Of a stretch of DNA of 32,000 nucleotides, positions 5,991 to 8,316 are shown piece after piece (positions within the stretch are counted from its first letter, which is position 1; each line of letters begins with the position of its first letter). Position numbers and translations under genes: made by a program. The stretch comes from Candidatus Baldrarchaeota archaeon (lineage in GTDB: Archaea > Asgardarchaeota > Baldrarchaeia > Baldrarchaeales > DXJG01): positions 60,001-92,000 of the forward strand of contig DXJG01000001.1 of the NCBI GenBank assembly GCA_019056805.1, in the 5' to 3' direction. The notes below the pieces were generated by a model. The model worked only from the letters and a program-made list of their open reading frames with translations, was not told the origin of the DNA and ran no database searches.

Positions 5991-6159
5991 GCCGGGGTAG
6001 CCTAGCCAGGCTAATGGCTTTATTTAAGCCGGCTAAGGCGGCAGGTACATGTACCCGCTAGGGCCTCGAGATCCAATTTTATCGGGGCTGGGTTATTCTA
6101 CACGAGATAGCCGCTGGCCCTTACGGGCCGCGTGGGTTCAAATCCCACCCCCGGCGCCA
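5991..6159 (+). tRNA. tRNA-Ser(CGA) with three introns (6015-6036 at 22/23, 6043-6061 at 28/29, 6071-6108 at 37/38)
   Basis: Spliced product GCCGGGG TA GCCT AGCCAGGCTA AGGC G GCGGC CTCGAGA GCCGC TGGCCCTTACGGGCCGC GTGGG TTCAAAT CCCAC CCCCGGC G CCA folds into a full cloverleaf with long variable arm and encoded CCA; each intron has BHB-like 4-bp helix and 3-nt bulge geometry. Confidence 0.9.
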
Positions 6160-6200: not shown

Positions 6201-7061
6201 ATGGAGCAAGATTTGGATGAAATGGTTCAGAAGATTCGTAGCGAATTTGGAGTTATAGGAAGAGACCGCGAGTTACGTAAAGCATTAGCCGCAAAACTCG
6301 CTGGGAAACATTTACTTCTTGAAGGTGAAGTTGGTGTTGGAAAAACCACCATTGCCTTGGCTTTGGCCAAATTTTTTAACCAACCTTTCTATAGAATTGA
6401 TGGGGATGATAGATTCACAGAATCGAAACTTGTAGGCCACTGGGAACCTCCTCTAGTCATAGAGTTTGGTTACGATGCTGAGAGGAGTTTTGTGCCGGGA
6501 CCTTTAGTTAGAGCTATGCTGGAGGGTGGAGTTCTCTTCATTAATGAATTAAATCGTTTACCTGAATCTACTCAGAACGTTTTACTTCCTGCTATGGATG
6601 AAGGTCAAATTATCGTTCCTAAACTCGGTATTATTAAAGCTAAACCTCAATTCTATATTATAGCCACACAGAATCCTGAAGAACATGTTGGTGTAACTTC
6701 CTTAAGTGAAGCGCTACGTGACCGTTTTGTTTGGATTAAACTGGATTATCAAAGTGAGGAAGAAGAGAAAGAAATTACTGCTCTACACTCAAACTGTAAC
6801 GATTCAAAAATAATCGATTTGGCTGTCAAAATTTGTAGATTAACAAGAAAACATCCAGATATTAGGCGCGGTGCATCTGTGAGAGGAGCAATAGATCTTG
6901 CAAGCCTGGTTTCTAAACTTAATTCTCATAGTGTAGATGAATGGGTTGATGCAGCAATAATGGCTCTTGGAACAAAAATAGAGTTAGAAGATGATACCAA
7001 CAAATCCGTTGAGAGAATAATACGAGAAATAGTGGTCTCGGTTTTTCAAAATTTTCAATAG
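6201..7061 (+). CDS. MoxR-family AAA+ ATPase
   Basis: Walker A LLLEGEVGVGKTT, Walker B variant LFINELNR, IIATQNP, ALRDRF and GASVRG motifs. Confidence 0.93.
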   Translation: MEQDLDEMVQKIRSEFGVIGRDRELRKALAAKLAGKHLLLEGEVGVGKTTIALALAKFFNQPFYRIDGDDRFTESKLVGHWEPPLVIEFGYDAERSFVPGPLVRAMLEGGVLFINELNRLPESTQNVLLPAMDEGQIIVPKLGIIKAKPQFYIIATQNPEEHVGVTSLSEALRDRFVWIKLDYQSEEEEKEITALHSNCNDSKIIDLAVKICRLTRKHPDIRRGASVRGAIDLASLVSKLNSHSVDEWVDAAIMALGTKIELEDDTNKSVERIIREIVVSVFQNFQ

Positions 7062-8134
7062 TTGAGGGAATTCAAGAAAGAATTCCCGATGACCAAAGTC
7101 CAATTATACTTACTGATAAGACAAGTGAAGAAAAAATTTTAGAGAAAGAAATTGAGGTTGGAGGGAAATTACCAGAATATTATCGTCGTTTAGCTAGGGG
7201 ACTTGACTATATTTCTGTAAGAAGATTAGCTGAAGTTGCTATTAAAAAATACAATATTTCAGCACTTTTAGGACTGGCAAAGACTAATCAATATGCTGTC
7301 GTAAATGCCCTAGTTAATTTAAAGAACTTGGAGATCTTAGCAAGAAAAGCTGCTAAGAACCCTGAAATGGGATACGCGCTCTTCTTCTTAATAAGGAGAA
7401 ATATTCCAAAAAAATATTGCCGTTTATTCCTAAATTTTCTTAAAGTTTCTATACTTAAAAGTGCATTAGGAAAACATGTTAATTTTTCACCTGGACCCTT
7501 TAAGAGGAAAGTAGAATACCAGTCAGGTTTAGATGATTTTGATCTTGATGAAACTCTGGAGAAATTTTTAGAACAACGATATTTAACCTATAATGATGTT
7601 GTTGGAATCGAACGTGAGGAAAGAAGGAAGGCAGGAGTTTTAATTCTTGATACCAGTGGATCTATGTATGGAGAGAAAATAGTGGCAGCTGCATTAGCTA
7701 CAGCAACGATTGCGTATCACATGAGAAACGTAGAACATTCGATAATCGTTTTTAACACAAAAGCAACAATAATTAAGAAAATTACCGAAAGAAAACCCAC
7801 CACAAGAGTGGTAGAGGAAATTCTAGAAACGGAAGCCGCAGGATTTACAAACATAGAAGACGCAATGAAAAAAGCCTTAAAAGAACTTAAAAAAAGTAAA
7901 ATAAAAGAAAAGTGGGCTATATTAATGACCGACGGCCTTTACAACAGAGGTAAGGATCCGAGAAAACTAGCATATCTTTTCCCTAAGCTTCATGTAATTG
8001 CTTTGCCAACTCAACAGCCCATAGGCACAAAAATATGTAAACAAATAGCAAACTTAGGTCATGGAAAATTCGCACAAATAAAAGAAATACAGCAAATACC
8101 TAAAGCATTGGTAAAAATATTAAAAAGAATATAA
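7055..8134 (+). CDS. von Willebrand factor A domain protein (MoxR partner); frame open from 7013, probably reached by -1 frameshift from moxR
   Basis: MIDAS motif DTSGS...T(GFTNI)...TDG is intact. The frame has no stop from 7013 to 8134 and no ATG/GTG/TTG before 7328 (the ORF-track start); 7058-7327 reads as plausible protein (IVEGIQERIPDDQSP...LPEYYRRLARGLDY...). Confidence 0.85.
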   Translation, partial: SIVEGIQERIPDDQSPIILTDKTSEEKILEKEIEVGGKLPEYYRRLARGLDYISVRRLAEVAIKKYNISALLGLAKTNQYAVVNALVNLKNLEILARKAAKNPEMGYALFFLIRRNIPKKYCRLFLNFLKVSILKSALGKHVNFSPGPFKRKVEYQSGLDDFDLDETLEKFLEQRYLTYNDVVGIEREERRKAGVLILDTSGSMYGEKIVAAALATATIAYHMRNVEHSIIVFNTKATIIKKITERKPTTRVVEEILETEAAGFTNIEDAMKKALKELKKSKIKEKWAILMTDGLYNRGKDPRKLAYLFPKLHVIALPTQQPIGTKICKQIANLGHGKFAQIKEIQQIPKALVKILKRI

Positions 8135-8168
8135 AGAAAATAAATTCTTTAAAGATAATTTTTATCCT

Positions 8169-8316
8169 GCGGGGGTGGCCGAGACCGTTACAAACGGTGG
8201 AAACCAGGTCAAAGCCGCATGTGTTCGGCGACAAAAGGCGACGGGCCCAGGAGCTACAGTGCGGAGAAACCCGTTGGCGTAGGCCTGCGTGGGTTCAAAT
8301 CCCACCCCCCGCACCA
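8169..8316 (+). tRNA. tRNA-Leu(CAG) with three introns (8184-8203 at 15/16, 8213-8235 at 21/22, 8252-8268 at 37/38)
   Basis: Spliced product GCGGGGG TG GCCG AGCCAGGTCAA AGGC G ACGGG CCCAGGA CCCGT TGGCGTAGGCCTGC GTGGG TTCAAAT CCCAC CCCCCGC A CCA has Leu-type acceptor, D and variable arms; intron hairpins CCGTT/AACGG and GCCG/CGGC with 3-nt bulges. Position 33 reads C. Confidence 0.87.

Follow-up and report, generated by a model that had tools for sequence, protein, structure and literature searches.

The gene under study, which lies 34 bases past the stop codon of a gene for a VWA-domain protein, appears to encode a functional tRNA-Leu(CAG) whose precursor would be freed of three introns by proteins. 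Judged from its sequence, this reading, taken as the whole explanation, is given a probability of about 0.8, and the three-intron gene is real and very probably functional. The three-intron layout itself is already known from other tRNAs. What the gene adds is an inherited cytosine at position 33, placed in the weakest splice helix, and an intron that was likely copied from another gene.

Gene and spliced product

The term window refers to the whole stretch of 32,000 nucleotides that was analyzed. In the raw window ARAGORN reports no tRNA at the locus. Rfam likewise misses the gene, returning for the raw window only a weak match to the end of a tmRNA, an assignment that was rejected. Once the three introns listed in Table 1 are removed, the remaining 88 nt are called tRNA-Leu(CAG) by ARAGORN. 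The product displays the features of a class II leucine tRNA, namely a long variable arm, A73, a leucine acceptor stem, and an encoded CCA. The intron-free ortholog of the sister family (genome G004, locus L004) is identical to it at 87 of 88 bases, the sole mismatch falling at position 33. The intron boundaries given in the preliminary description of this DNA, as well as its 9-nt exon between two introns of the D arm, proved to be exact.

Table 1. Window coordinates of the tRNA-Leu(CAG) gene, its parts, and the nearby tRNA-Ser(CGA) gene
Feature	Position	Strand	Remarks
tRNA-Leu(CAG) gene	8169..8316	+	spliced product 88 nt
Putative TATA box and preceding purine run	8130..8137	+	overlaps upstream stop codon; read from sequence
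Exon 1	8169..8183	+	tRNA positions 1-15; acceptor 5' strand, D-stem 5' strand
Intron 1, site 15/16	8184..8203	+	20 nt; central helix 3/4; inner hairpin 5 bp; outer helix 2 bp
Exon 2	8204..8212	+	9 nt; D-loop positions 16-21 including G18 and G19
Intron 2, site 21/22	8213..8235	+	23 nt; central helix 3/4; inner hairpin 4 bp; HBh' type
Exon 3	8236..8251	+	positions 22-37; anticodon CAG at 8248-8250
C33	8247	+	replaces near-invariant U33; faces intron base A8265
Intron 3, site 37/38	8252..8268	+	17 nt; central helix 2/4; 2-bp inner stem; full anticodon stem as outer helix
Exon 4	8269..8316	+	position 38 to encoded CCA; long variable arm, T arm, acceptor 3' strand, discriminator A73
tRNA-Ser(CGA) gene	5991..6159	+	introns 22/23 (6015-6036), 28/29 (6043-6061), 37/38 (6071-6108)

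The window encodes a Cdc6 protein that shares 93% identity with its counterpart in Candidatus Baldrarchaeota Yap30.bin4.67, which GTDB places in Asgardarchaeota, Baldrarchaeia, family DXJG01 (supplement of PMC11291895). An independent assembly of the contig (Logan, SRR3723048), possibly built from the same reads, has the same sequence, including C33. Across the family the order tRNA-Ser(CGA), AAA ATPase, VWA gene, tRNA-Leu(CAG) is preserved, and 19 family loci, in which the neighboring protein is 82-100% identical, could be compared. The exons are nearly invariant in these loci, the anticodon and the splice-helix bases are likewise conserved, and the intron loops drift. All but one of the complete copies encode CCA, the 3' end of L346 being TCA. 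The spacing of the candidate TATA box resembles that of the G004 ortholog, and the element is not clearly conserved in genome G001. In a metagenome pattern search just 3 of the 80 matches corresponded to this tRNA. As a separate observation, the frame of the upstream VWA gene is open at 7016-7328 (+) of the window, well ahead of the called TTG start, and reaches back into the AAA ATPase gene. Since close homologs measure 331-354 amino acids, the actual start probably lies farther upstream and is of a non-standard kind.

Splice motifs of the three introns

The strict bulge-helix-bulge (BHB) motif, with four central pairs and two 3-nt bulges, is found at none of the three sites, where three, three, and two of the four pairs are formed. 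The 3' end of intron 1 faces tRNA positions 10-13 (G-A, C-G, C-G, G-U), and intron 2 faces positions 18-20a (G-A, G-C, U-A, C-G), the latter without an adjoining exon helix. Both display the relaxed motif of three central pairs plus a flanking helix (HBh' or hBH). Intron 3, which faces positions 32-35 (C32-G, C33-A, C34-G, A35-G), has two central pairs only, yet it occupies the canonical site and retains both flanking helices. The preliminary description had assigned a terminal G-A mismatch to each central helix; these are indeed present (G10-A, G18-A, A35-G), but the second mismatch of the third helix, C33-A, had been overlooked.

The boundaries were fixed by alignment to compact orthologs together with hand curation; an automated search for BHB motifs combined with a cloverleaf, which penalizes C33 and 2/4 helices, ranked wrong solutions first here. 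Intron 1 cannot be slid, and for introns 2 and 3 the register in Table 1 scores best among those shifts that leave the product unchanged. Introns shuffled in place reach an equal or better BHB score with P = 1e-5 for intron 1, 0.003 for intron 2, and 0.025 for intron 3. The helix pairs hold in 81% of the alignment cells versus 27-46% in slid registers, a lenient control in that the structure was derived from one of the aligned sequences. Covariation is sparse and does not beat the shuffle control (136/500); the hairpin of intron 2 displays one two-sided change, from C-G to U-A, across the 19 loci. Other single-intron removals in the anticodon loop were considered and rejected: none yields U33, and those leading to CAA or CGA anticodons have no splice motif.

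Splicing enzymes

Two EndA paralogs and RtcB are encoded in the genome. The best matches of the EndA alpha protein are crenarchaeal alpha subunits (3P1Z, E 1e-44). By motif it has the Tyr/His/Lys triad, and its Lys40 aligns to the K44 residue in the broad-specificity loop. In the second paralog the catalytic histidine is missing; its nearest solved structure is the Methanocaldococcus enzyme (1A79), and it is taken as the structural subunit. The pair is thus predicted to form an endonuclease of the (alpha-beta)2 broad-specificity type, which is known to cut relaxed motifs. In the Aeropyrum enzyme broad specificity is conferred by the K44 loop (PMC3488258). A tolerant endonuclease, as proposed at the outset from the imperfect helices, fits both this subunit composition and the census that follows.

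Intron census of the genome

Every tRNA locus was aligned to the compact tRNAs of G004, after which the boundaries were fixed by motif. The census covers complete genes; assembly gaps truncate those for Trp and Ala-CGC, and the assembly, which is 91% complete, yielded neither Ile-GAT nor Ala-GGC. Introns interrupt 39 of the 44 complete tRNA genes and number 69 in all, or 1.57 per gene. Eight genes carry three introns each (Leu-CAG, Leu-CAA, Ser-CGA, Ser-GCT, Tyr, Lys-TTT, Asn, and elongator Met). In genome G004 of the sister family, about half of the tRNAs are compact and most of the others have one intron, far fewer than observed here. The suggestion in the preliminary description of a genome-wide proliferation of introns, for which it had called for such a census, is therefore right, but it has already been published for family DXJG01 itself. 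The second three-intron gene that it placed nearby, tRNA-Ser(CGA), is also real. Each of the Ser-CGA introns has four central pairs, and all three are kept across the family.

Four pairs are formed in 48 of the 69 central helices, three in 20, and two in a single one, that of intron 3 described above, such that 21 are imperfect. A natural second example of a 2/4 helix is provided by six sister-species loci (L344, L345, L347, L348, L350, and L351), in which the 15/16 helix of Leu-CAG reads G-A, C-A, C-G, G-C. The 15/16 site is occupied in eleven genes of the genome, eight of which display a purine-purine mismatch at G10. The arrangement of 15/16 and 21/22 introns around a 9-nt exon recurs in Leu-TAA. 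The census also revealed another tRNA whose spliced form has the anticodon TTT, the second of this kind (G000 C9:551-662 (+)); its acceptor stem contains a C-C mismatch, and its D-loop resembles that of the Ile-GAT tRNA of G004.

Position 33

In nearly all tRNAs the base adjoining the anticodon on its 5' side is U33. Of the tRNA genes that could be resolved in this genome, only this one has C33. The base is found in all 19 family loci, and a sequencing error was rejected as its source on these grounds. The G004 ortholog has U33, as do the six Leu-CAG genes that were read from other Asgard families. A loose C33 pattern run over 400 Asgard genomes gave matches that were mostly due to chance, and these were set aside. 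U33 is a general tRNA trait, one to which exceptions are known, and does not belong to the leucine identity elements.

Most likely, to judge from the sequence comparisons, C33 is used as encoded. It is improbable, but worth setting out, that deamination converts C33 of the precursor to U; this would repair both the splice helix (U33-A) and the anticodon U-turn and would make splicing dependent on editing. As editing would predict, the base opposite position 33 is A in 19 of 19 loci even though the intron loop varies, and the predicted pairing probability of the central helix rises from ∼0 with C33 to ∼0.45-0.54 with U33; the sister family and the six other Asgard genes have U33. The intron end is common, however, to Leu-TAG and to a CAT tRNA, and the A may merely have been inherited. 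C-A mismatches also occur in other central helices, at C11 in intron 1 of the L344 group, at C34 in the initiator Met intron, and in the Thr-TGT intron; in those positions they are uneditable, which supports tolerance of C-A. A precedent for editing is found in the archaeon Methanopyrus, where C-to-U conversion takes place at tRNA position 8. The CDAT8 type of system known there combines a deaminase-THUMP fusion with a C at the edited site of many tRNA genes. Here, in contrast, just one tRNA would need the activity, and the only deaminase of the superfamily found is a stand-alone dCMP-deaminase-like protein, with none fused to THUMP, in a genome that is 91% complete and from which the enzyme could be missing. 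Should C33 be edited after all, the site would be a novel one, with editing linked to splicing, in the archaea most closely related to eukaryotes. The dCMP-deaminase-like gene has a feature of its own: it is compact in this genome, and in relatives it gives two-part matches inside open frames of 578 and 883 amino acids (L249/L252 in G004; L250/L253 in G003), a split that resembles the pattern of an intein insertion.

The same cytosine could also be viewed as a sign of decay, the gene being a poorly spliced or unused relic that was inactivated by C33 and the weak third motif, with CUG read by Leu-UAG. A central helix with only two of four pairs and the loss of U33 would agree with this, as would the presence of a Leu-TAG gene and the fact that CUG is the rarest leucine codon in the genome (4.6% of leucine codons). 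Codons ending in G are about as rare in every four-codon box, however, and a relic would hardly be expected to keep its exons, anticodon, and splice-helix bases through 19 loci whose neighboring protein has diverged to 82-95% identity, while its intron loops drift, or its encoded CCA in all but one of the complete copies. Decay is accordingly regarded as very improbable. A Candida-type reassignment of CUG was likewise rejected: CTG codons align to leucine in homologs at 69% of 135 sites, as compared to 60-66% for the other leucine codons.

History of the introns

All 19 family loci carry introns 2 and 3; ten have intron 1 and nine lack it. A tree of the neighboring gene, the root of which is unsure owing to a long outgroup branch, groups the nine loci without intron 1 with good support (94/100), and the intron-bearing rows are not a supported clade as the tree is drawn. 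At site 15/16, Leu-TAG has an intron in each of the two branches of the genus and Leu-CAG in one of them, and the 37/38 intron is common to both genes in both branches. Within this genome, the Leu-CAG and Leu-TAG introns agree at 17 of 20 positions at site 15/16 and at 15 of 17 at site 37/38, making these the two most similar of all intron pairs. Indeed, the core of intron 1, which is free of splice-motif constraint, is 85% identical to that of Leu-TAG versus 27-38% for the nine other 15/16 introns (shuffle P 1e-4). The flanking exons of the two 15/16 introns are identical over 15 bases before and 11 after. When the introns were searched against the genome, as had been recommended in connection with transposition, only the Leu-TAG copies lay in a tRNA context; other matches, with 2-4 mismatches, did not have matching flanks and were treated as chance.

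These observations suggest that intron 1 was probably copied from Leu-TAG into Leu-CAG in one branch, with gene conversion as the probable route. Rather less likely is an old presence of intron 1 in both leucine genes, followed by its loss from Leu-CAG in the other branch. The unsure root and the unsupported clade of intron-bearing rows leave room for such a history, and the 37/38 intron sets an example of an intron present in both genes and both branches. A gain and a precise loss would be needed, however, in place of one gain, and the Leu-CAG intron differs from its own Leu-TAG counterpart at 3 positions whereas either differs from the Leu-TAG intron of G001 at 5-6. As the choice concerns history only, an old intron would be compatible with the splicing mechanism proposed below. 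Copying from one leucine gene to another would provide a concrete and datable case of how a tRNA intron arrives in an Asgard genome, between isoacceptor genes with identical exons.

Other resemblances were noted among the introns of the genome. The variable-arm intron of Leu-CAA (G000 C6:5392-5550 (-)) and the D-loop intron of Thr-TGT (C9:4085-4209 (+)) share their first 12 bases and 16 of 19 overall, and form a candidate transfer across tRNA types and positions; both are A-rich, and the core shuffle P of 4e-4 is uncorrected for the many pairs compared. Introns at the same position are 77-79% alike in the isoacceptor pairs Lys-CTT/TTT and Glu-CTC/TTC and in the cross-type pair Val-CAC/Gly-GCC.

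Proposed mechanism

[quoted passage not shown] Minimum-energy and equilibrium folding of the naked precursor do not favor the three central helices, for which the pair probabilities are 0-0.15, and thus protein-assisted or stepwise folding is assumed. The central helix of intron 1 employs the 5' strand of the D-stem (positions 10-13), and hence this intron would have to be cut before the D-stem closes. The strong anticodon stem may, together with the C32-G pair and the 3' bulge, hold the weak 37/38 site in place. C33 would be kept as encoded, and CUG would probably be read by Leu-UAG as well. The 15/16 intron would have entered Leu-CAG by way of the identical flanking exons, with Leu-TAG as its source. 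The gene constitutes a compact test substrate, and its third helix, the weakest in the genome, would mark the limit of tolerance of an Asgard EndA.

Comparison with known systems

Departures from U33 have been described elsewhere. Eukaryotic initiator tRNAs have C33, and the Candida tRNA-Ser(CAG) has G33 (PMC5041475). The latter shares the CAG anticodon with the tRNA described here, which differs in having a leucine-type body and in that CTG is still leucine. Closer in kind is the tRNA-Cys(GCA) of the Sulfolobales, with C33 (PMC7668247), likewise an inherited departure in an otherwise normal tRNA. Unlike in these tRNAs, C33 here sits inside a splice helix, opposite an A.

The predicted endonuclease resembles the crenarchaeal (alpha-beta)2 EndA of Aeropyrum pernix (3P1Z, PMC3488258) in that the catalytic alpha subunit bears the loop and the lysine corresponding to K44, and in that the non-catalytic subunit is separate. 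Among solved structures, the beta subunit here is nearest to the Methanocaldococcus enzyme.

Among Asgard archaea, introns occur in 92-95% of the tRNA genes of three complete genomes, and three-intron leucine tRNAs have been tabulated for Atabeyarchaeia (Valentin-Alvarado et al. 2024, PMC11291895). A recent preprint describes up to five introns per gene with a bias toward the D arm, two EndA paralogs in most genomes, and 1.57 introns per gene for family DXJG01, the figure also obtained in the present count (Goswami et al., 2026, bioRxiv 10.64898/2026.10.13.758758). The gene described here conforms to this picture in its several short BHB introns, many of the introns in such tRNAs lying in the D arm, and in the two EndA paralogs of its genome. 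The main text of the preprint does not mention C33, and the gene may be included in its per-gene tables. The preprint does not settle how introns arrive and found little copying from one tRNA type to another; the copying between leucine isoacceptors that is likely here would be a small and specific addition.

Three-intron tRNAs have long been known in the Thermoproteales (Sugahara 2007, 2008; Fujishima 2010, as reviewed in PMC4090602), which belong to another phylum. As in Leu-CAG, canonical and non-canonical introns occur there in one gene with relaxed HBh'/hBH motifs, the EndA is of the (alpha-beta)2 type, and similar introns are found in different tRNA genes. The Baldrarchaeia genome differs in favoring site 15/16, mostly with the purine-purine mismatch at G10.
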